Positions 3,633 through 42,238 are shown, counted from the stretch's first letter. The stretch is DNA of 64,000 nt from an uncultured Gammaproteobacteria bacterium (GCA_963722805.1 CAVROQ010000012.1:280047-344046), one strand, 5' to 3'. The notes: a model not told the origin generated them from the sequence alone. Program-made: numbers and translations.

Positions 3633-3705
3633 TTGCAGCCCGGCAGCAGACCCTGCACAATCGTCTATCACACCACAAGCATGATGCCTTATCAAGGAGT
3701 TAACG

Positions 3706-4959
3706 ATGATCGAGTGGACTGAGACGCACCTGATGCTGCGAGATGCCGTGCGCGGTTTTTGTGAAACTGAAATTGAGCCCAATCTCGATCAGCTGGAGCA
3801 TGGCGATACACCTCCCTACGAGGTGCTGCGCAAGTTTATCAAGACATTCGGTATCGACGAGATGGCCCGCAGCAACTTTGCCAGGACCCTGGCACGAGAA
3901 GATAAGCACCAGGCGACAGAGGGGGCAGGGACTGGCAAAAAGCCTGATAGTGCAGATAAGTATGCCCAGCGACTGGATGCGGCGGCGATGCGCGCGGTAC
4001 CCATTATCGAATTGTCACGCTACTGTCCGGGCATGGTGACGGCGATGGGTGTCAGCATGGGGCTAACCGGCGCTGCCATTATGTCCCGTGGAACCCGGGC
4101 GCAAAAGGAGCGGTGGGCCCTGCCGGTGCTTACCATGGAAAAAATCGGCGCCTGGGCAATCACCGAGCCCAACTCTGGCTCTGATGCTTTTGGTGGTATG
4201 AAATCCACCTGCAAGCGTGACGGCAATGGCGGATATCTGCTCAACGGCAACAAGACCTACATCACCAACGGTCCCTATGCCGATACTATCGTGTTTATTT
4301 GTAAGCTGGATGAGCCCGAGGTAGACCCGCGCCAACGCAAGATTGTCAGTTTTATTCTCGACAGTGGCATGCAAGGCCTCACTCAAAGCAAGCCGTTTCG
4401 CAAAATGGGGATACATTCGTCGCCAACCGGCGAGTTGTTTTTACAGGATGTTGCGGTGGGGGCCGAGCGCCTGATTGGCGAAACTGAAGCGGTTTCGGCT
4501 CGTGCCGGTGCCAAATCGACTTTCTCTGCGGAGCGTTCCGGCGTGGTGGCTATGGCCCTGGGTATTGTCGAACGATGCCTCGAACTGTCAGTCAAGTATA
4601 GCAACGAGCGCGTTCAGTTCGGCCAACCGATCGGCCAGTTCCAACTGATCCAACTCAAGCTGGCCAATATGGAAGTGGCGCGGGTCAATTTACAGAACAT
4701 GCTGTTCCGCAACATCGAAATGGCCGCCAGCGATCGTGAGCAGACCCTGGCCGAGACCTCGGCAATGAAGCTCTATGCTGCCAGAGCCGCGGTCGAGGTG
4801 GCCATGGAGGCGGTCCAGATACATGGTGGCAATGGCTATATGAGCGAATACCGGGTGGAGCAGCTGGCACGGGACGCTAAAATACTGCAGATTTACGGTG
4901 GCACCGATGAAATCCAGATAACCCATGTCGCACGAGACTTGTTGCAGCGCGGAGCTTAG
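3706..4959 (+). CDS. Acyl-CoA dehydrogenase family protein
   Basis: ACAD motifs AWAITEPNSGSDA and YITNG, plus the C-terminal [12 protein letters not shown]...[23 protein letters not shown] lies upstream of the ATG. Confidence 0.9.
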   Translation: MIEWTETHLMLRDAVRGFCETEIEPNLDQLEHGDTPPYEVLRKFIKTFGIDEMARSNFARTLAREDKHQATEGAGTGKKPDSADKYAQRLDAAAMRAVPIIELSRYCPGMVTAMGVSMGLTGAAIMSRGTRAQKERWALPVLTMEKIGAWAITEPNSGSDAFGGMKSTCKRDGNGGYLLNGNKTYITNGPYADTIVFICKLDEPEVDPRQRKIVSFILDSGMQGLTQSKPFRKMGIHSSPTGELFLQDVAVGAERLIGETEAVSARAGAKSTFSAERSGVVAMALGIVERCLELSVKYSNERVQFGQPIGQFQLIQLKLANMEVARVNLQNMLFRNIEMAASDREQTLAETSAMKLYAARAAVEVAMEAVQIHGGNGYMSEYRVEQLARDAKILQIYGGTDEIQITHVARDLLQRGA

Positions 4960-5224
4960 GGCATCTCTGATTAATTCGGTGTCACCTCAGGCTTTGCGCC
5001 GTGATGTCCTGCAAAGCGAGGTCACGCAGTAAGGCTGGTTGCCTTTCGAGTGACCACAATGCCGCAGGAGATTGCGGCGCAAAGCCCCGAAGGGCGGGCC
5101 TTTGGTGATCGCTGGACTGCGTTGCGACGCTCGTCAATGAGAACCACCATTGACCTTCGCGCCGCGCCTTGCCAGCCATCACCAAAGGCTCCGCTGAGGT
5201 AGTACCTAATTGATCAGAGGTGCC
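4960..5224. repeat. MITE-like palindromic element, long copy (about 265 bp)
   Basis: Imperfect terminal inverted repeats: ggcatctctgattaattcggtgtcacctcag at 4960 matches the reverse complement of ctgaggtagtacctaattgatcagaggtgcc ending at 5224, about 25 of 31 positions. There is an internal long stem (ggctttgcgccg ... cggcgcaaagcc). (c)ttag flanks both ends (4955-4959 and 5224-5228). Related copies lie at 23137-23242 and 42160-42238. Confidence 0.6.
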
Positions 5225-5250
5225 TTAGCAGCTTATTGAGGAAGGCTGTG

Positions 5251-5278
5251 TTGACCATATGTTAGCTATGGCTATAAA
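5251..5278 (+). promoter_or_regulatory. Near-consensus sigma70-type promoter (TTGACC, 16-nt spacer, TATAAA)
   Basis: ttgacc at 5251-5256 and tataaa at 5273-5278, about 30 nt upstream of the ATG (5307) of the decayed Memo-like gene. This is a sequence pattern only. Confidence 0.4.
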
Positions 5279-5306
5279 ATAGCTCAGTAAAGATGGTATG
5301 AGTTCA

Positions 5307-6120
5307 ATGAAGACGCGACAAGCCGTGACCGGGCTGTTTTAAGACGCCGACGCCCGGCGATTACAACACCATATCGCCACATTGATGAGTGCCGCCGACG
5401 CGCGCAAACTGAGCCCACCGTGCGCTTTGATCGTGCCCCATGCAGGCTATGTTTACTCGGACCACACTGCGGCCCAAGCTTGCTGCTGACTGCAGGCTTT
5501 TCGGCGCTAAATCAGTCGAGTCGCGCTGTTCGGCCTGGCCCGCCCCGGTCCACCGGTTCTACCTGCTGGTCATGGCAGTGCCGAAGTGGCTGCATTCGAG
5601 ACGCCCCCGGACGAGGTCAAGCTGGATCGCGCCGCTATCCCCGAGCTCTCGGAAATGCCCGACGTGGAAGTGTCGGATAAGGCCCACCGGGAGGAACATG
5701 GCCTGGAAGTCCAACTGACGTTTTTGCAGGCGACGCTCGACACCTTCACTCTGGTGCCCGTGGTAGTGGGCAACAGTGATCGGCGATCAGAAACCAGGGT
5801 GGCGCACCGTGCGAGTACCCCAATACCCCGCTGGTCGTAAGGAGCGACCTGTCTCACTGCCATCGCTATGAGCAGGCGAACACCATCGACCAGCACACCT
5901 GTGATTGTTTGCTTGCCAAGGGCGATACACTGCTGGATGAAGACGCCTGCGGCGCCAACGCCCTCAATAGCCTGATGGCGAGCAACACCGCCAGGGACCT
6001 GCGAGTGGAATGACTCCAGCGCTGTAACTCTGGGTATACTGCGGGCGACCGCGGGAAAGTGGCGGCCAAGCTCCAGGCAATGAGGTTGGGCACGGCCGCG
6101 GAACTGGTTGATGCGGCTAT
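5307..6120 (+). pseudogene. Decayed Memo-like (AmmeMemoRadiSam system protein B family) gene
   Basis: Family hallmarks are spread over broken frames: IVPHAGYVYS, DKAHREEHGLEVQLTFLQ, VPVVVGN, SDLSHCHRYEQA, ACGANAL and NSGYTAGD. In-frame stops include TAA at 5340-5342 (codon 12) and several later ones. The frame changes near 5800-5830. The 3' boundary is approximate. Confidence 0.6.
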
Positions 6121-6348
6121 TCATGCGACGCTTACCTATTTCGTCTACCGACCGGCTACGCTAGTGGTCAGCAAACTATTGCGGAGCATGCAGGTACATG
6201 AATATGGCTCCACTGAAGTAAATGGATAAAGTTGCTGCGTACTCAGCAGCATGATCGAAAACCGGTGTCACCCAGAATCAGAAAGTGCGAAAGATTATTG
6301 ACGCCACCCCAAATACCGGTGAATTGACAAGAGTAGTATGGAGAACTT

Positions 6349-8214
6349 ATGAAACGATGGGTTAGGCGGCAGCTCGATATTAGCTTCACACATGCCTTTG
6401 TCTTTTTTCTATTTGTAGTTTTTTTATTGCGCTGGTATCGGAAGGATAACATCCTCAATATTCATTTTGATGCCTACTCTATTAGCGCAATATTGCTAAG
6501 TTTTTTGGCATTACATTTTTTTATGAGATTTTTTGATTCACTAACCTCTTTCCACAAGTGGCTCAGAATCCCAGTAACTTTTATATGCGTCTTCTTGTTT
6601 TTGATCTTGTCGTATTACACTTTGAGTGTGGGAGCGAATCTGGATTATAGCGTCATTGTTGATAATGCTGGCGCTGGATTGCATGCGGAAAGTTTTAAGG
6701 TCATTGCCAGTACCTTTTCACCAAGGGATTTTGTTGAGATTGGTGTTATTTTGTTGTTTTTAGCTGTTGCGCAAAAAACAACAGGGGCGCTCGAACTCAA
6801 AAGCGCCGAGGTTTTACCGATTGTTAATATTGCATTGTATGCAACTCTTTTTCTCGCAATCGCCCTATTCACCAAGGGCAATTTAGATCCTTTTTCAAGT
6901 TTTGGTGCGTCAGTACACAACACATATAATGTCAATGTGCTGGACAAACTATCTCCGGAGCTTAAGGCAAGATTAGAAGTCGAACCATATCCTCTGGTTA
7001 AATCTACCAAGAACATCGCGGTTGAAAATCCTCCCAATATATTTATTGTTATGATGGAATCGCTGAATGGTAATTATGTTGATGCTACTTCCCAAGATGG
7101 TAAAGCATACACCCCGTTTTTTAATTCTTTGACGCTTAGAGGGAGGCATTACAAGAACTTTTATGGCAATTCAGTTCAAACGGCCAAGGGGATGTTTGCA
7201 ACATTTTGTTCGTTGATGCCATCGTTTAGTGGAAATGCTTTCACTGAGTTTGAAGATAATAACTTTCGGTGCCTTGCTGATATCCTAAGAAGGAATAATT
7301 ATGAGACTTATTTTTTTAAGGCTTTTCATAGTTTGGCGTTCGATAATGCATACAATTTTAATGTGAAAAATGGATTTACGTATTTAAAATCAATGGATGA
7401 AACCATGATTTCAGAACAGGAGCGTAAAAAATACTATTGGGGATGGGGAATACAAGATGATTTTTTCTATAAAAAAATGTTTAAGTATATTGATGCGCAA
7501 CGTGATAAAAATCCAAAAAAGCCGGTCTTTGTAACAAGCTTAACTATTAGTCATCATAATCCGTTTGAATCTGTCCCAGAGCGCATGTGGAAAATATATC
7601 CGGATCAGAAAAACAGAAGAGAACAGTTTGCAAACTCTATGTACGTTGCTGATTCCTACTTGAAGGAGTTCTTTTCTCAGCTGGAGAGCAGAGATTACTT
7701 GGATAACTCGATTGTTTTCGTTCTCGGCGATCATAGTTTTCCATCCGGTGAGAATGGAAACTTCAATAGCGAAGTCGGCTATAAGGAGGAAAATTTTAAA
7801 ACCTCATTGGTGATGATCGACATGAGAGCGCAGGCAGGAGAGGAAATAACGGATGCCTATTCTCAGCTCAACATTGCTCCTACGGTGTTGCAATTAGCCG
7901 GTATATCTGGAGACAATCACTTTTTAGGTGAGTCGTTATTGGCGGCAGCGCCAGAATATATTCCACTTGTTCAACCATATAATGGTCGCTATCTTGGTTT
8001 AGTAAGTCAGCCATATAAATTTGTCTTTCATCAGCGAACTGGGCGGATGTATGCTTACAATCTGGACCTAGATCCTCAAGAGAAAGTGAATATTATTGAT
8101 GATATGAGTGACGAAAGGCTAAGCGAGTACCAGTCTAAACTGGCAGAGATATACTACAACTACTACCTGTTGAAGCAGGATCGTATTTGGCCACGAAATG
8201 ATACCGTTCAATGA
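6349..8214 (+). CDS. LTA synthase / phosphoglycerol-transferase-like membrane protein (alkaline phosphatase/sulfatase superfamily)
   Basis: A multi-helix hydrophobic N-terminus is followed by a sulfatase-type domain with motifs NIFIVMMESLNG, NSVQTAKGMFATFCS (putative Thr nucleophile) and FVLGDHSFP. GGAG lies 7 nt before the ATG. The gene is strongly AT-rich relative to its flanks. Confidence 0.75.
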   Translation: MKRWVRRQLDISFTHAFVFFLFVVFLLRWYRKDNILNIHFDAYSISAILLSFLALHFFMRFFDSLTSFHKWLRIPVTFICVFLFLILSYYTLSVGANLDYSVIVDNAGAGLHAESFKVIASTFSPRDFVEIGVILLFLAVAQKTTGALELKSAEVLPIVNIALYATLFLAIALFTKGNLDPFSSFGASVHNTYNVNVLDKLSPELKARLEVEPYPLVKSTKNIAVENPPNIFIVMMESLNGNYVDATSQDGKAYTPFFNSLTLRGRHYKNFYGNSVQTAKGMFATFCSLMPSFSGNAFTEFEDNNFRCLADILRRNNYETYFFKAFHSLAFDNAYNFNVKNGFTYLKSMDETMISEQERKKYYWGWGIQDDFFYKKMFKYIDAQRDKNPKKPVFVTSLTISHHNPFESVPERMWKIYPDQKNRREQFANSMYVADSYLKEFFSQLESRDYLDNSIVFVLGDHSFPSGENGNFNSEVGYKEENFKTSLVMIDMRAQAGEEITDAYSQLNIAPTVLQLAGISGDNHFLGESLLAAAPEYIPLVQPYNGRYLGLVSQPYKFVFHQRTGRMYAYNLDLDPQEKVNIIDDMSDERLSEYQSKLAEIYYNYYLLKQDRIWPRNDTVQ

Positions 8215-8594
8215 TTTTCGCTGAGCGCACTGAAGACCATATAGATCTTATCGCTGTAGTCCCAAAAATACTCATGCAAGCCGAAGTTGAACTTGTCGAA
8301 GTCCTTCCGGTAGTTCCGTTGGATCGACTCTCAGCAGCGGCAGAAAATCCCGTCTGTTTATTATGCTGGGCGTGCAATTATTAGCCATCGGCAGGGCCGG
8401 GGCTAATACACTCATTTTTAGCCACGCCAAAGACATCAATGAGTACATAATCAGGGAAACCCTCAACTGTTGCCTTTTGATATTTGGCGCATTACTGCCA
8501 GATTGCATGTACTGGCGCGATAGGAAACTGGCCATTTACTGGACAATAACCCGATCAATTCAAACAAGCAAAGACCGATAGTTGGTAAAACCAG

Positions 8595-10532
8595 ATGAAC
8601 AGAATCAATCCTCACTCCCCGAGCTGGGACTTCAAAATATGGTTGCCATTATTGCTGGCAGTTGCCTACGGCATTTTCGCGCGACTCTACAATCTTGGCC
8701 ACTGGGAACTCACGATTGACGAATACTACATCGTTAAATCAATCGAGAGCATACTGGACGACGGTCTGCCCTCTTTTGGCTGCGGAGGCTACTATGAACG
8801 CGGCCTACTTCAGCAATACCTGACTGCTCCGCTCATTGCCTACTGTGACAATACCGCATTTGCCGCTCGCATTCTGCCGGCGCTAGCCAATATACTCGCT
8901 ATTCCGGTGATGTTTAAACTCGCCGAGAAAGTCAGTCAATCCAGGCTGATAGCTGCAGTCGTCACCAGCCTGTTCGCGCTATCCCTATGGGAAATTGAAT
9001 TCGCACGTTTTGCCCGTATGTACAGTTTTTTTCAATTAGTATTTATCCTGCAACTGTATTGGCTCGTAGAAATTACTATCGAAGACCGAATTGACCGCTA
9101 CAAATACCTGCTAGCCACTACCGCACTCGGAATATTTATCTACCAGGGAGTTATCTTCTCCCTGGTCTTGTGCACACTGCCAATTATCCTGAGCACGAAT
9201 CGCATTAAGCCGGCACACCTCTTTGGCCTGGCCATTACTACAGTTTTAATAGCGATTCGCACCAAAATTCATTTTCGCAATCTGCTAGCCGAGCCTCGCT
9301 ATCCGGAGGAATACATGGGCAGTAGCAGCGAAAAGCTCCCAGTCCATATTCCAGAATTTATGCTGGTCGACGCAACTTCCGCTTGGGTGCTGACCGCGAC
9401 GGTATTTGCCGCGATAATCCTGGGCCTGCTTGTACTGCAAACACACAAGCAGCGCTTCAATATTTGGCAAGGCGTTGTGATGGCGGGGATTTTTGTCTGC
9501 GCCGTACTGCATCAATTTGCTCTGGCGTTAGTCTTGGCGATTATCTCTACTTGCTTTGGTATTTTTAAAGACAGGGGATGGTATTTCCTGAGGCTTTGTC
9601 TATGGATTGTCGTACCCTTGGGTATCTTCTGGCTATTGCTTGGCGTCATTGGCTTGGAGCTCGGTATACCTGACACTATCAGGCTAATGCTAAGATACCC
9701 CTCGGTTTACTGGAATGTGCTGGTTCCGTTCTTTGCTGCTGTTCCTCGAGACAGCCTGATTTTCTTTCCGATACTACTGCTAGGTGCTGTATGGCTTCTG
9801 CGAGAAGCGATACTCAGCGGAAAAATCAGCGCTCCATCGCTTTTACTCGGGGTGAGCATAATGCTGCTCGTTGCGCAAAGTGCATTTATAACTCCGGAAA
9901 ACCCTACCCGCTACAGCTTTTTCCTGTACCCCTGTCTGCTGCTGCTATTCTGCTATTTTTGCGTTCGTTTGCCGACCGTATTCCAGCTGCCCTCGAGAAT
10001 TCAACGGTCACTAAGCATTGGCCTTATATTGATATTCGTTTTGGTGTCGGAAAACTACAACCCCAAGCACTTGCTGAATGTAAGCTCAGCTGAATACAAC
10101 TTTCGCATGCCTTATCAGCTGTTTTTACAGTTTCACTTTTACCAGCGCTATAGCTACACAGATGTGGCAGATTTTATTAACAAAAACCTGGAGGATGGCG
10201 ACCAGGTTATAGCAGCCACGCCAGTTATTGATTACTACCTGGACAAGCTGGATTTCTCATACCGGGACATTGCGACAAGGTGGTTTCAGGAGACCAGTGC
10301 CTGCAGCGGTACCCGACACATATGGAGCCACTCGCCGCTAATTTATACACAGCAACATCTTTTGGAGCAGGTGGCCAATGGCCAGAAAAACACATGGATA
10401 ATTACTGGTGAAAACGGCAAAGGGTTTCAAGGTCCGGAAGATAAATTCATCTCCAGTCACTACCAGCAGTATCTAACGTTCACTGGCCAGGATTCTCAGC
10501 TTAAAGTCTACAAAATCCCGGCAGACAGATAG
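8595..10532 (+). CDS. GT-C fold membrane glycosyltransferase (ArnT/PMT-like, GT39/83-type)
   Basis: About 13 predicted hydrophobic helices. An acidic first-loop motif follows helix 1 ([24 protein letters not shown]), as in ArnT/PMT_2 enzymes. There is a C-terminal soluble domain of about 130 aa. The gene is AT-rich. Confidence 0.55.
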
Positions 10533-10558
10533 AATCAGGATGTTGGGTCAACTGCCTG

Positions 10559-10705
10559 GCAGTCAAAGTGTTTCGTATTTTTAATACCTATGGTCCCACA
10601 ATGTATCCGAGTGATGGCAGGGTGGTCAGCAACTTCTTACTACAAGCACTGCGCGGAGAAGATATTACGGTCTACGGCGAGGAACAAACAAGAGCCTTCT
10701 GTCCT
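10559..10705 (+). pseudogene. Internal fragment of a UDP-glucuronate decarboxylase / NAD-dependent epimerase-dehydratase gene
   Basis: [47 protein letters not shown] matches the conserved mid-region of UXS/ArnA-C-type enzymes ([10 protein letters not shown]...DGRVVSNF...YGDGSQTRSFC). No N-terminal Rossmann part or C-terminus is present. Confidence 0.7.
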
Positions 10706-10796
10706 GAGGAAGGGGCGCCATCGCAGGCCCGGCTTGTTTTGACTGACTCCATGACATCTTGATTGTGCTTTGCTGCTCCCTTTGAGGAAGCAGCAG

Positions 10797-10931
10797 GGCG
10801 GCAATGGCTATATGAGCGAATACAGGGTGGAGCAGCTGGCACGGGACGCGAAAATACTGCAGATTTACGGTGGCACCGATGAAATCCAGATAACCCATGT
10901 CGCACGAGACTTGTTGCAGCGGGGCGCCTAG
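10797..10931 (+). pseudogene. Orphan duplicate of the last 44 codons plus stop of the acyl-CoA dehydrogenase gene
   Basis: Aligns without gaps to 4825-4959 with 6 mismatches in 135 nt. It encodes the identical peptide [44 protein letters not shown]. Homology stops abruptly at about 10796. Confidence 0.85.
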
Positions 10932-10952
10932 AGCCTCGGGACCGCGACCACT

Positions 10953-12731
10953 CTACCCTCTGGGAGTGTTGCCTTGTTCTGCATCAGCTTGTGCTTGTTC
11001 TTCCATTGAGGCGGGCAGCGATGTTCTTCGTGGGCGTCTCAGTTTGCCAAGCCAACGCCAAAGGGCGCCACCGGGGGCCTCGAGACCTGAGCGCACATAG
11101 CGCTCGACATTTCTGTTATCGGCGATCCAGCGTATAAATATTTCGGCCTGACCTTGCCCACCGAGCAAAACCTCATCACCCACTTGCAGAGGGACTTGTG
11201 GCTCAGGAAGCAATATATATTCATCGCCGCGTTTGATCATAAGCGGCAGCACGGCCAGATCGCGATCGCGATTGCGTGGATCACGACACAAAAAACCCAC
11301 TCTTACCAGGCGCTGTCGTTGCAGGGCAGCGTAAATCGCCGGCGCGTTTTCCGGCGTTACATTAACCGTCCAGATATCCAGCGGTCGCTCTTCAATAATG
11401 GCGCTGATCCGCTGCAATAAATCGCGGGTCCAGGCCTCGTCCTGCAAGCGCAATAGACCGACGAACTCGATCATCAGCGGGGTTTTTATCAGGACGAAAA
11501 TTTCGTCGGCAATGATGCGCCCGGGCTCCATGATCATATTGATGTTGGCAGCCCTGAATACCGGCTTGTTGGCGTCCAGGTTCTGGCGCGCGACGGTAAT
11601 CAAATCGGGCTTGAGATTGCGGGCGGTAATGATAATCGACAGGTTGTCCGCATCGTCATCGGTGCCGGCAATAATGCCTACCGAGTTCATGATGCCCGCG
11701 AGCAAGAGTGTCTCAGCCTCCGTGCCGACCTCCTTGATGGTTCCTGCCGGGGCGTTGTGCAAGCTGGGATGAGGGTCGATAAATGTCATCGAAATCTGCT
11801 GGTCCTTGCAGGCCACCTCCAGGGCCTTGCCAAAACGCCCATAGCCGCACACAACCCAATGTCCTTCGGTAACCTGGTAAGGCGACGGCAGCACCTTGTG
11901 GTGAGGGTTGAAGATCAGATCCTTGACGATAAAACGGTACGGCCTGGTGATAGAGTCGACGAAGAACTCAGCAAATATCCTGAAAGGGTCGATGATATGG
12001 TCGGTACCGAAGGAAGCAAGGTTTGCCGTGGTTCCCGCTGACTCGGTACGGCTAATCACCTGGCGCTCGGGAAACACCAGTTTACTGTCTATCGATACGG
12101 CGAGATTGGTGTGGTCATCGTCGGTCAGGGCGATCACGCAGGCGCAGTTTGATAGTCGCAGTCCAGCGGTGTTGAGCAGGCTGGGATCCGCCGCGTCGCC
12201 GCAGATAGCGGGCACACCGAGACCGATTTGATCGGTCTCCAGTTCTTCAATCACGCGATGATCGATGTCGATGACTACCGCTTGAAGACCCTCATCGTAA
12301 AGTTGGTGCACCAATCTGCTGCCGGTAACCCCGTAGCCGCAAACCAGGAAAAAGGGGTCACGAATGCCGCGTACTTTGCGACTGAAAGTATTGTGCTTTA
12401 TCAGGCGAATAAAGCTTTGTTCCTGGAATAGGGCGAGGATCTTGCTGATGCTGTAGAGCCATGCCACCACCGTTGCATAGATGGTATAGATAGTCCAGAA
12501 ACGTTGGCCGGTGGTGAACGGGTAGGGGATTTCACCAAAGCCGATAGTGGTACCCATAAAACTGACAAAATAGAAGGCATGGAAAAAATCCATACGCCAG
12601 GGATTACCCTGGTCGTCGACGCCGGGGATCAACACAAAACCAAGTATGGAAATAGAGTAGACAACGACAATCGTAATCATGGGCGCCCGTAAACGCCTCA
12701 GAAACAAATAAATGACATGACCGTGCTGCAT
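10953..12731 (-). CDS. Potassium channel protein (2TM pore plus two RCK/TrkA-N domains)
   Basis: Selectivity-filter-like GTTIGFGE lies between two hydrophobic helices. There are two Rossmann-type RCK starts, LVCGYGVTGSRLV and VVCGYGRFGKAL. Confidence 0.85.
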   Translation of the reverse strand: MQHGHVIYLFLRRLRAPMITIVVVYSISILGFVLIPGVDDQGNPWRMDFFHAFYFVSFMGTTIGFGEIPYPFTTGQRFWTIYTIYATVVAWLYSISKILALFQEQSFIRLIKHNTFSRKVRGIRDPFFLVCGYGVTGSRLVHQLYDEGLQAVVIDIDHRVIEELETDQIGLGVPAICGDAADPSLLNTAGLRLSNCACVIALTDDDHTNLAVSIDSKLVFPERQVISRTESAGTTANLASFGTDHIIDPFRIFAEFFVDSITRPYRFIVKDLIFNPHHKVLPSPYQVTEGHWVVCGYGRFGKALEVACKDQQISMTFIDPHPSLHNAPAGTIKEVGTEAETLLLAGIMNSVGIIAGTDDDADNLSIIITARNLKPDLITVARQNLDANKPVFRAANINMIMEPGRIIADEIFVLIKTPLMIEFVGLLRLQDEAWTRDLLQRISAIIEERPLDIWTVNVTPENAPAIYAALQRQRLVRVGFLCRDPRNRDRDLAVLPLMIKRGDEYILLPEPQVPLQVGDEVLLGGQGQAEIFIRWIADNRNVERYVRSGLEAPGGALWRWLGKLRRPRRTSLPASMEEQAQADAEQGNTPRG

Positions 12732-13202: not shown

Positions 13203-13436
13203 GGCCGTACGGGCACCTGTAATTTTTATCACTCAAATATAAATTTTATAGCGCCAGAGGTCAATCAGCCGGCTCTGCGTTTTACCGCTGTGTCCGAACT
13301 TCTCCTCATGCCAGAAACCTGGCTGACCGGCAGATGCGCGCTAATATTTTGCTGCGCGAAGATCAGATCGCGAGTGTGCCAGCTCCGCGTCTTTTGGTGT
13401 CTATCATTGGCGAAAGCCAAGTAGGTTAATGGCAAG

Positions 13437-14807
13437 TTAAACGTCAGCCGCTTTGGCCAAAAATTCAGCCCTCTCCGCTTGTTCCGGGATATGCTGTGCA
13501 ATTGCAGCGATACAGGCTTCTCTGTCGCCATTTTCAGCAAATGCCTTTCGCACCAGACGTCCCGCGAGGGGTCCGGCGTAAAATGCCAATAGTTTAGACA
13601 GCGACTCTAATTGTTGGTCACTCAGCGAAGCTGGTCGGGCCACCGATCCGTTGCGGGGGGCGATCGAAACAGCTGGCGGAGCCTGGTTGAAAGATCCCGT
13701 TTGCTTGATTCCACTTCGATTTAAAACCCCGATAAACTGGCTCCTCTCTGCTTCATTGGGGATATGCCGGGTTAAACTTTCGACCAATTCATCAATACTA
13801 CTGGCTGAACGGCTGGTCCTTTTCACCAATAACCGCGCCATTGGCCCCACATAGCGTGCGAGCGATTGCTCCAGCGATACCAACAATTCATCGTTCCACT
13901 GACTGGAGGAAACGCTACTGCGGGCAATCGGAGTGACTGGCTTGTGGGACTCCGGGCGCGGAAAACGAGCCACCGTAGCCATGGTGAGATCCATATCCTC
14001 GATGGATTTAAGCTCGCTAATAAACTGCCCGACCGATTGGTATCGTGCAGCGGGATCGCGCTGCAAAGCCCGGCTGAGTATCGGTCTAATAGATACAATA
14101 TTGTCGGGTGAGAGGTGTGCAACCGTCTCCAGAGCTTCCAGTGACTGCTCGAGATCTTTCTCGCGCAAGGGTCGACTGCGTGTCAACAACTCGAAAAACA
14201 GCACACCGACGCTGTAAAGATCCGAGCGCGCATCCACTTGCTGTCCGAGTAATCCCTCGGGCGACATATAGTTCGGCGTGCCTACCATGTAACCGGTGCC
14301 GGTAAGATCCGACGTATCGAGGCGAGCCACACCAAAGTCAGAGACTTTTATCTTGCCGTTCTCCAACAGGATAATATTGGCAGGCTTGATATCTCGATGG
14401 ACAATGCCTTTGTCGTGGGCGTGCTGCAACGCTTCAAGTATCTGGATAGTAATAGCAGTAGCCGAGTGAAGGGCAATAAAAGTTTCACTTTTCAAATAGG
14501 CACTGAGCTCGGTACCCTCAACGTATTCCATGACAATATAGGGAATGGCATCATTGCCAAAATCGAATATGGCTACAATATTGGGATGCAGGCAGCGAGC
14601 TGCCGCTTTTGCTTCCTGAAGAAACCGGACTTCGAGTTCAGCACCGTTATCTCCAAGACGAAGATGGTCGTGCAGAACCTTGACAGCTACCGGGCGTTCA
14701 ATCTGGGTGTCATACGCTTTGTAAACAATACCCATAGCGCCGCTACCAAGTACGGATTGAATATCGTATTTGGCAATGCGATGCGGATGGCCACCCATTA
14801 AAGTCAT
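13437..14807 (-). CDS. Hanks-type serine/threonine protein kinase with duplicated C-terminal helical module
   Basis: GSGAMGIVYKA (P-loop), AVKVL (Lys), HRDIKPANIIL (catalytic loop), DFGVA and GTPNYMSPE. No hydrophobic helix is present. Two homologous segments of about 57 aa lie in the C-terminal third. Confidence 0.9.
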   Translation of the reverse strand: MTLMGGHPHRIAKYDIQSVLGSGAMGIVYKAYDTQIERPVAVKVLHDHLRLGDNGAELEVRFLQEAKAAARCLHPNIVAIFDFGNDAIPYIVMEYVEGTELSAYLKSETFIALHSATAITIQILEALQHAHDKGIVHRDIKPANIILLENGKIKVSDFGVARLDTSDLTGTGYMVGTPNYMSPEGLLGQQVDARSDLYSVGVLFFELLTRSRPLREKDLEQSLEALETVAHLSPDNIVSIRPILSRALQRDPAARYQSVGQFISELKSIEDMDLTMATVARFPRPESHKPVTPIARSSVSSSQWNDELLVSLEQSLARYVGPMARLLVKRTSRSASSIDELVESLTRHIPNEAERSQFIGVLNRSGIKQTGSFNQAPPAVSIAPRNGSVARPASLSDQQLESLSKLLAFYAGPLAGRLVRKAFAENGDREACIAAIAQHIPEQAERAEFLAKAADV

Positions 14808-14811
14808 ACAG

Positions 14812-15690
14812 TTATGGATTCTCGTCGAGCATTTTCACAGCATTAGCCAGGCTGCGATGCATGCGGTTAAAGGATCGGCCCAGTGACGATATTTCATCTT
14901 TGCCACTAACACTCAGCTCTTCTACATCAAGTTCTCCCATGCTAACTTCATCGGCTTTTATCGACATCGCCCGGACCGGCTTGATAACGATGTAGTGTAG
15001 CAACAAATTTAATATGATCCCGATCAGAAGGAATATACCAACCAAGGCGCCCATGAAGGTGTAAAAAGTTGCCCTGGCACGTTCCAACGGCAATGACATT
15101 GGAACCGCAACGATTTGCGCACCAACGGTTTCATTGAGCTGCCACCCGAAGCCATTGCTCGAGCCATAGGTCTCGATCATGGTCGCAGGTGCCGCAGAGG
15201 GCGTACTATGGCAAACAAGGCAATCAGGATTGGTAATGGTAATGGGGCGGCTCAGGTATAACTGAGGCCCGGTGGGAGCCATGCGTTCGCCAATTAATTC
15301 ATTGCTATCTTCATGATTGCGAAACCATGAAACTATATCGGCTTCCCATTCGGTAGCACGGTCCGCCGGATTGGTTGGATTGAGTGTTGCTTCCTTGTAA
15401 CTGTAATCTTGGTGGCTGAGTTGTAATTCTTTAATATAGCGGCCAGCGGCATAGGCCGGCACTGTCTGGGGGATAAAACTCCGCCGCTGTTGTACCTTCA
15501 GCAATGGACGAATTTCATTGGCGGTATAACTGCGCACCGCGACCGCACTCTCCATCATAAGGCGGGCCATTTCCAGCACTTCTTCACGCGCATTTTGCTG
15601 CAATAACTTCTGGCTCACGAACGCCGAAATACCGAGACCCGCAAGGGTCGTTAGAATGAGTACAAGGTTAAACTTCAGGCGTAATCCCAT
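14812..15690 (-). CDS. Haem-c sensor protein (DUF3365/Tll0287-like periplasmic domain), TM helix and HAMP; no output domain
   Basis: An N-terminal TM helix is followed by a periplasmic domain with a single CLVCH haem-c motif and ADRATEWEADIV. A second TM helix is followed by a HAMP-like segment (IKPVRAMSIKADEVSMGELD...ISSLGRSFNRM), and the protein then ends. The start at ATG 15690 has GGAG upstream. The stop lies 4 nt before the kinase ATG. Confidence 0.75.
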   Translation of the reverse strand: MGLRLKFNLVLILTTLAGLGISAFVSQKLLQQNAREEVLEMARLMMESAVAVRSYTANEIRPLLKVQQRRSFIPQTVPAYAAGRYIKELQLSHQDYSYKEATLNPTNPADRATEWEADIVSWFRNHEDSNELIGERMAPTGPQLYLSRPITITNPDCLVCHSTPSAAPATMIETYGSSNGFGWQLNETVGAQIVAVPMSLPLERARATFYTFMGALVGIFLLIGIILNLLLHYIVIKPVRAMSIKADEVSMGELDVEELSVSGKDEISSLGRSFNRMHRSLANAVKMLDENP

Positions 15691-15704
15691 AAAAAATACT
15701 CCGG

Positions 15705-16631
15705 CTAAGGTGCGCTTATTCGTTGGTTGCAAAGCTGCCACACGGCGAAGGCAGCGGGAAAATGCTGAACTGAAAACTGGATTGAGCGGGCCTGGGTCAC
15801 CGGCCAAGTGGGCCAGAAGCCCAGTGAAACCGTCATCGAGCTCGCGTCTTGCAAGGCATCGGTCAAAGCCTGACGTTGCTTGACGAATTGGATCGACGTG
15901 TCTTTCACAACATTCTCCAGTTCAAAATGCTGGCCATTGTCAAGGGATAAACCGGTGTCACTGTAGCTCGTATCGATGTCAGACTGGGTTCGCAACCACC
16001 AACTGTCAGCGCTCAGGGACAGGCTGACGGGAGTTGCTCCCTGGCCATCATCGAGCTTAAGAGTCAGGGTATTAAGGCTACAGGATTGTCCCTCTCCCCT
16101 GATGATCCAGGTGTTTTCAACGGTAATGGGCAATTGCTCTAGAGAAAAGCCGGCCGCCAGAGCTGCAGTGGCTTGAACGGCGGGCTCGCCATCGCTGCTC
16201 TGCACGTCCCCCACCTCATCTGCGGCCTCCGTAATGTCAGCTTGATTTTCAGGCTCTTTTGCAAGCGGAACTGCCTCATTGACTACCTCAACGTCCGAAA
16301 CCGGGGGCGGTGCCTTTGTGACTGCGGGCGCTATTGGTTTGGGCTCGCGCTTTGGCGCCGCCGGAGTGACAATTTTTTCTCGATCGTGGGTGGCGGTTTC
16401 CAGCTCTGTGTCGATTGCCGGGACGGGTGAAGGTATCGTATCTGTTGTCGGTGATCGTTGCCTTTCATTTACCGGCGCCTCAAGCACTTTTTCAGGAGGC
16501 GCTACCACAATGCTTTGACTGGTTTTTTCTGAAGTAGTATCGGGCGGAGTTGCAGTCGTGGTGCAGGCAACCAGCAAAACCGCGTTAGCCACGGCCAAAG
16601 CCAACTGCAGTATATAGCGTTGAAATGCCAT
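15705..16631 (-). CDS. Lipoprotein with Pro/Glu/Thr-rich linker, unknown function
   Basis: Signal peptide with lipobox LLVAC, about 130 aa of low-complexity P/E/T/A linker, and a C-terminal beta-rich domain of about 150 aa. It is the first gene of the three-gene cluster ending with the kinase. Confidence 0.6.
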   Translation of the reverse strand: MAFQRYILQLALAVANAVLLVACTTTATPPDTTSEKTSQSIVVAPPEKVLEAPVNERQRSPTTDTIPSPVPAIDTELETATHDREKIVTPAAPKREPKPIAPAVTKAPPPVSDVEVVNEAVPLAKEPENQADITEAADEVGDVQSSDGEPAVQATAALAAGFSLEQLPITVENTWIIRGEGQSCSLNTLTLKLDDGQGATPVSLSLSADSWWLRTQSDIDTSYSDTGLSLDNGQHFELENVVKDTSIQFVKQRQALTDALQDASSMTVSLGFWPTWPVTQARSIQFSVQHFPAAFAVWQLCNQRISAP

Positions 16632-16723
16632 CGGGTTATCCTAATGTTGAGGCGTGTATCGGCTGAAAGAATAGGGTGATCAGTGGGATAAGTCCATTGC
16701 TATCCCGCTGCTGTCGAATGACT

Positions 16724-23136: not shown

Positions 23137-23242
23137 GGCATCCGGTCAGCGGGGGCGGAAGCCGCAAACAGGGGCCTCTGGCGCTTTTCAGAGCCTTCAC
23201 CAAAGGCTCCGCCGAGGTAGTACCTAATTGACCGGAGATGCC
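23137..23242. repeat. MITE-like palindromic element, medium copy (about 106 bp)
   Basis: The right end caccaaaggctccgccgaggtagtacctaattgaccggagatgcc matches the copy-1 right end at about 41 of 45 positions. The left end ggcatccggtca is the truncated inverted partner. The element lies in the divergent spacer between glcB and the ligase gene. Confidence 0.5.
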
Positions 23243-23280
23243 TTAAGCTGTGACAAACAGCTCTCCTGGCGGCCATCAGT

Positions 23281-42159: not shown

Positions 42160-42238
42160 CTCTGGTCATTGCGGCGTCAACTCAGGCTTTGCGCCCTGCA
42201 AGCCATCACCAAAAAAGTAGCGCATCAATGAACCGAGC
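42160..42238. repeat. MITE-like palindromic element, minimal copy (about 79 bp)
   Basis: cgcctctggtcattgcggcgtcaactcaggctttgcgcc resembles the copy-1 left arm. ctgcaagccatcaccaaa...gtagcgcatcaatgaaccgag resembles the right arm. The internal region is absent. Confidence 0.4.

Follow-up and report, generated by a model that had tools for sequence, protein, structure and literature searches.

A duplicated acyl-CoA dehydrogenase gene end brackets a 5.8-kb islet without a recombinase gene in an uncultured gammaproteobacterium

INTRODUCTION

Direct repeats of the 3' end of a gene are usually read as the footprint of an integrase. In a 64,000-nt stretch of DNA from an uncultured Gammaproteobacteria bacterium (GCA_963722805.1, CAVROQ010000012.1:280047-344046; the whole stretch is referred to here as the window), the end of an acyl-CoA dehydrogenase (ACAD) gene occurs twice, once as part of the gene itself (copy A) and once as a stub beside a convergent K+ channel gene, Kch (copy B), and the two copies enclose an insert of 5.8 kb. 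How did this DNA come to lie between two versions of the same gene end? An earlier note on the locus had proposed an old insertion, site-specific or homology-driven, whose recombinase has since been lost. The analysis described here leads us to regard the insert as an islet that has no recombinase of its own and that, on balance, probably entered by reciprocal recombination, most likely of the RecA type, in the last ∼135 nt of ACAD.

RESULTS

The two gene ends differ only by synonymous changes

A gapless alignment of window positions 4825–4959 with 10797–10931 showed 129 identical bases out of 135. The mismatches fall at 4827, 4852, 4878, 4950, 4953 and 4956, and all six are synonymous, so that copies A and B encode the same 44 residues and stop; the repeat is thus as the earlier note had described it, free of non-synonymous and indel differences. 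Similarity sets in ∼3 nt ahead of the repeat, at 4822/10794, and an apparent match that runs past the stop codon to 4965/10937 is due to chance, since the sequence from 4960 on is the end of a transposable element. Between the third and fourth mismatches, the copies share an identical core of 71 nt (4879–4949 and 10851–10921) that occurs exactly twice in the 64 kb, while shuffled sequences gave no matches. ACAD is intact at 417 aa, and its 3' end stands at both borders of the insert. The distance from the end of copy B to the Kch stop codon is 21 nt, as had been noted before, and the sequence that follows copy B is the flank seen in two strains with an empty site (strain E and contig L099, see below).

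The same succession of repeat, insert and repeat was found in ENA contig_12424 (6 differences from the window in 18 kb), in two JGI contigs (L082 and L098) and in two Logan contigs (L088 and L089), and a 924-nt contig from run X16 joins the insert, copy B and the channel gene in this order. Since it is present in several independent assemblies, the structure is not an assembly artefact; L082, L098 and L088–L090 represent the same strain as the window. One of the six sites is polymorphic in copy B. At position 10850, a G is found in L088 and L089 as in the window, but runs X1, X3, X4 and X7 have a T, the copy A state, so that only five differences separate A from B in some strains. This polymorphism probably reflects gene conversion between the two tails and points to continuing exchange between them.

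Related lineages have a single gene end and no insert

The nearest species-representative genomes, those of two uncultured Gammaproteobacteria (L001 and L002), have ACAD orthologues with 85–88% amino-acid identity and share the upstream LutABC neighbours with the window; the blocks LutB-LutA-ACAD and Kch-DUF6394 are kept. Three closer relatives (L092–L094) have 88–92% DNA identity to the window. All five carry a single tail and no insert, as does a further lineage, strain E, represented by a 300-nt contig in run X4 and matching contigs in X5 and X6, and as does L099. In L001, the ends of ACAD and the channel gene share 11 nt; the two genes are separated by 8 nt in L002, by 20 nt in L092 (on a 967-kb contig) and by 51 nt in L093 and L094. 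The expectation that ACAD would be directly convergent with the channel gene wherever the insert is absent therefore holds in L001, L002, L092–L094 and strain E, and none of the findings that the earlier note had named as fatal to its account was encountered.

A survey covered 80 loci with ACAD orthologues, of which 49 extend for 5 kb or more downstream of the gene. At the protein level, a second tail match was detected at one distant locus only, L079. At the DNA level, the orthologous loci yielded only repeats of 14–21 nt, in twelve distant loci, and none of the length of the tail. Neither an integrase-bearing element at the ACAD tail nor a cognate integrative and conjugative element (ICE) or integrative and mobilizable element (IME) at the same site was identified in the 80 loci, the additional L079 match not having been examined. 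A degenerate search for the tail among JGI metagenome contigs returned nothing beyond one distant ACAD (L084).

Another ∼20 runs, of urban, marine, freshwater, salt-marsh and macroalgal origin, contain the islet together with its flanks and at the same depth. The possibility that some runs contain the islet without its flanks was considered and rejected, since the shares of islet and flank words track each other, with the exception of run X17.

An empty-site contig combines the left part of copy A with the right part of copy B

Five tail alleles of the genus (A, B and those of L092, L093 and E) differ from one another by 6–13 changes, 6 between A and B and 7–13 in the other comparisons, and encode the same peptide apart from one substitution in L093. 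As the genus alleles differ in the same, nearly always synonymous, manner, copies A and B look like two ordinary alleles, which supports the earlier proposal that both evolved in working genes of different lineages. The outcome expected had copy B instead been duplicated in situ and then decayed neutrally can be calculated. Taking the chance that a difference is synonymous as ∼2f/(1 + f), where f is the synonymous fraction (0.24–0.29), all six differences would be synonymous with p ∼0.003–0.008 (our own arithmetic). Polarizing the six sites with the distant genomes L001–L008 was abandoned because synonymous sites are saturated there.

Contig L099 (Logan, 2356 nt, run SRR21285577) comes from the study that also yielded L088 and L089. 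It is identical to the window over 3958–4949 and 10932–11370 and lacks the insert. At the six variable sites its single tail reads T, C, T to the left of the core and G, C, C to the right; copy A reads T, C, T and C, A, T, and copy B C, A, G and G, C, C. The L099 tail thus consists of the left part of copy A and the right part of copy B with the switch inside the identical core, which is the layout of a reciprocal exchange. Whether L099 represents the ancestral target or an excision product, its tail has the states expected of the substrate or the product of such an exchange in the core. If L099 carries the resident allele, the tail borne by the incoming element would have been C, A, G and C, A, T, and this combination agrees with other species at four of the six sites. 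Judged from these contigs, the islet appears to be present or absent among near-identical strains.

The 5' part of ACAD is variable in its own right. Window positions 3696–3962 form a mosaic patch with 54 differences from the window in another contig, L100, and 9 in L099 (within 3759–3957); over the next ∼1 kb both contigs are identical to the window. The pattern is suggestive of recombination in the region of the enzyme's variable N-terminal linker.

The islet is nearly identical in a lineage with diverged flanks

Run X17 contains a second islet-bearing lineage, strain G. Its islet differs from that of the window at 31 of 3295 positions (0.94%), whereas its flanking contigs, spread over 20 kb, differ at 207 of 2389 (8.7%; Fisher p = 8e-49). 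Consistent with this, the share of near-identical words in X17 is 0.46 for the islet and was too low to be listed for the flanks. Strain G has both of the window's junctions, namely the A tail followed by CAGCTTATTGAGG and, at the other side, the end of a multi-copy element (element 2, see below) followed by the B tail, and it is within the tails that divergence rises from the low to the high level. An islet that is ∼99% identical where the flanks are ∼91% identical indicates recent lateral exchange between species-level lineages. The age assigned to the insertion in the earlier note does not fit these data: the islet seems to come and go among near-identical strains, and it is ∼99% identical across lineages whose flanks differ by ∼9%.

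The insert is a mosaic that contains no recombinase gene

The 5.8-kb insert is a mosaic of foreign and scrap DNA (Table 1). Each component named in the earlier note, a MITE-like element (miniature inverted-repeat transposable element), a decayed Memo-like gene, an AT-rich two-gene cassette and a decarboxylase fragment, was recovered; their composition is given below. Stretches without assignment amount only to 6066–6307 and 8325–8466 (∼245 and 142 nt).

Every open reading frame and gap of 4960–10796 was scanned. No gene or remnant of an integrase, transposase, excisionase or relaxase, no replication gene, no phage, plasmid or conjugation gene and no ICE or IME remnant was found in this bracket, and the precomputed Pfam annotation lists no integrase or transposase within 10 kb on either side. 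The recombinase that the earlier note supposed to have been lost has therefore left no trace here. Rfam and tRNA scans of the region returned nothing relevant, so that a tRNA or tmRNA gene does not serve as the target.

Table 1. Features of the ACAD–Kch locus, in window coordinates
Feature	Position	Strand	Description
ACAD, acyl-CoA dehydrogenase gene	3706..4959	+	Intact, 417 aa; Pfam Acyl-CoA_dh_N, _M and _1
Repeat copy A (attL-like)	4825..4959	+	Functional ACAD 3' end: last 44 codons and stop
MITE	4960..5224	.	265 nt; secondary insertion
Decayed Memo (AmmeMemoRadiSam system protein B) pseudogene	5255..6065	+	Pfam Memo, 9e-25 (read-through translation)
Module 1	6308..8324 (gene 6349-8214)	+	Sulfatase-fold, LTA-synthase/phosphoglycerol-transferase-like membrane enzyme
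Module 2	8467..10554 (gene 8595-10532)	+	645-aa polytopic membrane protein
Epimerase/decarboxylase scrap	10565..10700	+	∼45 internal codons; NAD-dependent epimerase/UDP-glucuronate decarboxylase type
Truncated multi-copy element 2	∼10703..10799	+	Ends in a terminator-like hairpin; right insert junction with copy B
Repeat copy B (attR-like)	10797..10931	+	ACAD 3'-end stub; no gene body in front
K+ channel gene (Kch), convergent	10953..12731	-	Ion_trans_2 and TrkA_N; native right-hand neighbour of ACAD

The two modules of the cargo are AT-rich. The composition of module 1 is strongly foreign (GC 0.39, tetranucleotide r 0.03); the values for module 2 are GC 0.48 and r 0.48. The module 1 protein matches Pfam Sulfatase at 1e-36, and its NCBIfam matches to LtaS/MdoB-like families are weak and lie under the family cutoffs; the module 2 protein has no match in Pfam, NCBIfam, PADLOC or the PDB sequences. 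Copies of both modules with 88–91% identity are present in L085, L086 and L095–L097, where module 2 precedes module 1, and these copies define sharp boundaries of ∼2 kb for each module. In L095–L097, which belong to this genus, the modules (90–91% identity) lie among CoA-transferase genes and adjoin an IS110 transposase. The junction sequences in L085/L086 and L095–L097 are unrelated to those of the window, and since the spacer is unrelated as well, a simple circular permutation was rejected as the origin of the reversed order. In several contigs the 645-aa protein is kept at ∼90% identity beside its sulfatase-fold partner. From a sulfatase-fold transferase accompanied by a large membrane protein, we infer that the cargo modifies the cell envelope.

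The remaining coding pieces are debris. The Memo pseudogene contains stops and a frameshift and shows 78% DNA identity to the intact gene of the relative L091, which sits in the usual cluster of radical-SAM, Memo and AMMECR1 genes; its composition is host-like (GC 0.58, r 0.76 versus a background of 0.81), and it has a promoter-like site of its own at 5251–5280. The decarboxylase gene has lost both ends. What is left corresponds to positions 167–212 of the 240 in Pfam Epimerase, with E = 5e-4, just under the family cutoff.

A MITE and a truncated repeated element lie at the insert borders

The segment next to copy A (4960–5224) has the properties of a MITE: terminal inverted repeats (GGCATCTCTGAT...) of ∼31 nt that match at 25 of 31 positions, a target duplication, TTAG, at 4956–4959 (which includes the ACAD stop codon) and 5225–5228, a high copy number, a lack of coding capacity and a relative in which the site is empty. 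Its depth is 40–320 compared with 7–9 for the flanks (5–40x), and the other copies lie in many flanking contexts. A full copy with 77% identity is found at L001:1494-1764, and partial copies occur in the window at 23192–23245 and 42160–42213. The family as a whole makes TTAG or TTAA target duplications and reaches ∼5–40 copies per genome equivalent in metagenomes; no matching transposase was identified for it. The empty site is that of strain G, in which position 4954 is joined straight to 5224 with 269 nt skipped, so that the islet is present and the MITE absent. The MITE is therefore a later, separate insertion and not, as had been assumed, a part of the original insert.

The segment next to copy B also belongs to a repeated element. 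The core of element 2 (10741–10791) has a depth of 50–118 compared with ∼8 for the flanks (6–14x). In its other copies, which have GGCCGTGGGCCGCCACAGGCCCGGTTGTTCGAT in front, the sequence continues with GGCGGGC, followed in two variants by a T-run, as in a terminator, whereas the window copy breaks off partway through the hairpin's 3' arm, where ACAD codon -45 takes over. Element 2 has no Rfam match, and viral contigs lack its core. A small RNA gene is one possible identity for it, the 3' end of some repeated unit another. The idea of a single transposon that ends in the MITE on one side and in element 2 on the other was rejected, since the MITE is complete by itself, having inverted repeats and a target duplication of its own, and has no similarity to element 2.

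Farther to the right, beyond the channel gene, the window contains a 3.3-kb block (13348–16675) that is absent from L092–L094, where DUF6394 is followed directly by a P450 gene. Besides a Ser/Thr kinase, which is unmatched in L001 and L002, the block encodes a 308-aa protein and one with a HAMP domain. A search for direct repeats at its borders was negative.

DISCUSSION

A model for entry and loss of the islet

An insert bracketed by a duplicated gene end is a further example of a known structure; what sets it apart is that DNA without a recombinase lies within a footprint typical of integrative elements, and that metagenomes let one follow how the islet is gained, lost and passed between lineages. 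We propose that the incoming DNA carried its own ACAD gene end, an allele of a related lineage. After the exchange, copy A would complete ACAD and copy B would stay behind as a stub beside the channel gene. The exchange itself would most likely have been RecA-type homologous recombination in the 71–97-nt core that is identical between alleles, and it could have taken either of two routes. A single crossover with a circular molecule (the Campbell topology) would give the observed structure, and two crossovers in the tails with a linear fragment from an islet-bearing strain would give the same product; the second route would also explain spread into lineages in which the channel gene is ∼12% diverged. 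Recombination between A and B would then lead to clean loss of the islet, the same repeats would permit its spread within the genus, and ACAD would be intact in every state, whether the islet is gained, lost or passed on. The founding joint may have been illegitimate, linking the terminator hairpin of element 2 to ACAD codon -45 through the GGC(GG) that both have in common.

Several considerations lead us to favour homologous recombination. There is no recombinase in or near the islet and, the L079 tail match aside, no integrase-bearing element among the 80 loci; the right junction is an arbitrary break in a terminator hairpin; and the exchanges map to a long identical core. In addition, single crossovers are known to produce such duplications in Escherichia coli: in a test in which a circle carried truncated homology, 56 of the 60 events were such duplications, of 109–950 bp, and true one-sided illegitimate recombination was much less frequent (PMC3240628). 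Of the two mechanisms left open in the earlier note, insertion driven by homology fits L099 and strain G, and insertion by a site-specific family that targets ACAD finds no support in the 80-locus survey, the L079 match aside.

Several observations weigh against the proposal that the islet entered through its ACAD tail by homologous recombination. Neither a circular form nor a donor arrangement, that is, one tail with the cargo, was seen in window-type strains; contigs in X17 are compatible with such a form and are not phaseable. No contig in the ∼20 runs skips the 5972-nt interval in window-type alleles. L099 itself, a single short-read contig with no private single-nucleotide polymorphism near the tail, might stem from an erroneous path across the repeat in an assembly graph of low coverage. 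We consider it probably a real empty haplotype, because the same pipeline breaks contigs at this repeat in X1, X3 and X4. The location of the islet in X17 is ambiguous as well. Contigs as short as these do not permit phasing over the shared core, so that two arrangements are compatible with them, an islet integrated at the same site and one that resides on a separate molecule beside an empty site. Furthermore, copy B of strain G differs from that of the window at four sites in its left part, next to the islet, which a simple one-step model does not predict, so that gene conversion or a different donor would be needed. Finally, that the enzyme was RecA rather than an integrase is something that we infer, and the data do not separate RecA from an integrase supplied in trans.

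Alternative explanations

Insertion by a tyrosine or serine integrase is the first alternative to be weighed, and we consider it unlikely, though far from negligible. The islet would then be an element of the e14/icd type or a decayed cis-mobilizable element (CIME), its integrase deleted or acting in trans on an attP in the element-borne ACAD tail and an attB in the chromosomal tail. The topology is identical to that of prophage e14 in E. coli icd, which is accompanied by a 163-bp pseudo-icd duplicate (PMC6379469); CIMEs are known to retain att sites without recombination genes (PMC7563491); strain G shows the same junctions in a diverged background; and the tail pattern of L099 fits excision by an integrase equally well. 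Against this stands the negative search of the bracket and its 10-kb surroundings for integrase, excisionase, relaxase or remnant, together with the shortness of the unassigned insert DNA, which is insufficient to hide an integrase gene. The survey of ACAD loci, with its DNA repeats of only 14–21 nt, likewise identified no integrase-bearing element at this site, L079 again aside, and the right junction, lying within the hairpin of a truncated multi-copy element, looks like an arbitrary breakpoint and not like an att arm. No positive evidence was found for an integrase in trans, as for CIMEs, or for one since deleted, as in a decayed e14-like element.

Alternatively, a linear fragment may have been captured by one-sided homology-facilitated illegitimate recombination, anchored on its left in ACAD and joined on its right at the resident codon -45, with the resident tail becoming copy B. 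Such events have been invoked for the displaced 3' ends of Rhs and type VI secretion system (T6SS) loci (PMC5361080), and a microhomology of 3–5 nt, GGC(GG), at the junction of element 2 and ACAD is possible, if not provable. However, this explanation predicts a copy B that is wholly resident, whereas copy B, with C, A, G on its left, matches L099 at none of these three sites and would be foreign there if L099 carries the resident allele. The donor tail would, moreover, pair with the very stretch that the illegitimate joint is supposed to have targeted, and in the E. coli test cited above such events were far rarer than single-crossover duplications. We regard it as improbable.

Duplication of the tail in situ while foreign DNA was being captured, for example by staggered breaks or template switching, with the six differences arising later, is very improbable: the 6 differences between A and B are indeed fewer than the 7–13 that separate either of them from the alleles of other species, but a copy B free of frame constraint would hardly have acquired only synonymous changes and no indels, and relative to L099 the three left differences all lie in B and the three right ones all in A, an arrangement with a chance of ∼1 in 32.

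Comparison with known systems

Like prophage e14 (and phage 21) in E. coli icd, the islet sits in the 3' end of a housekeeping metabolic gene for which the element supplied a replacement end; the displaced stub at the far side measures 163 bp there and 135 bp here, and the differences between the ends are conservative (PMC6379469). However, e14, a prophage, encodes an integrase and excision functions of its own, whereas the islet is a patchwork of scraps that has neither a recombinase nor any phage, plasmid or conjugation gene. The CIMEs of streptococci, found at the 3' ends of fda, rpsI, rpmG and tRNA genes, resemble the islet in being small cargo islets with flanking direct repeats and no recombination or transfer genes (PMC7563491). 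They differ in their origin, which lies in ICEs or IMEs, and in being mobilized through the same att site by a cognate element of this kind, none of which was identified at the 80 ACAD loci (the L079 match being unexamined).

Campbell-type integration, as obtained by E. coli conjugation in the laboratory, shares with the islet a direct duplication as long as the homology carried and the absence of a site-specific recombinase (PMC3240628). The E. coli case is a laboratory construct, whereas the islet would be the result of a natural event between lineages. In Rhs, CDI (contact-dependent inhibition) and T6SS effector loci, as here, a new 3' part and cargo enter via a conserved upstream sequence and the old end is orphaned downstream (PMC5361080). 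The displaced ends of those loci are different toxin tips with immunity genes and are diversifying, whereas the tails of the islet encode the same 44 residues of a metabolic enzyme.

Implications

Three population observations point to plain homologous recombination in a conserved gene end as the way in which the islet is gained, lost and spread: the presence or absence of the islet in near-identical strains, the chimeric tail of the empty site, and an islet ∼99% identical between lineages with flanks of ∼91% identity. It is tempting to go a step further and to regard the islet as a recombinase-independent mobile unit that uses a conserved gene end as a portable homology arm, so that it enters, leaves and crosses species-level lineages by host RecA alone and restores its target gene each time. 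This is a tentative proposal, which we put forward as possible rather than probable. If it is true, a duplicated gene end would be a general signature of homology-arm islets and not of lost integrases. For annotation, the locus advises caution, as a repeat at the border of an island is no proof of a site-specific element. It offers a natural case in uncultured sediment bacteria and a small testable model for envelope-modifying cargo that moves between related species.

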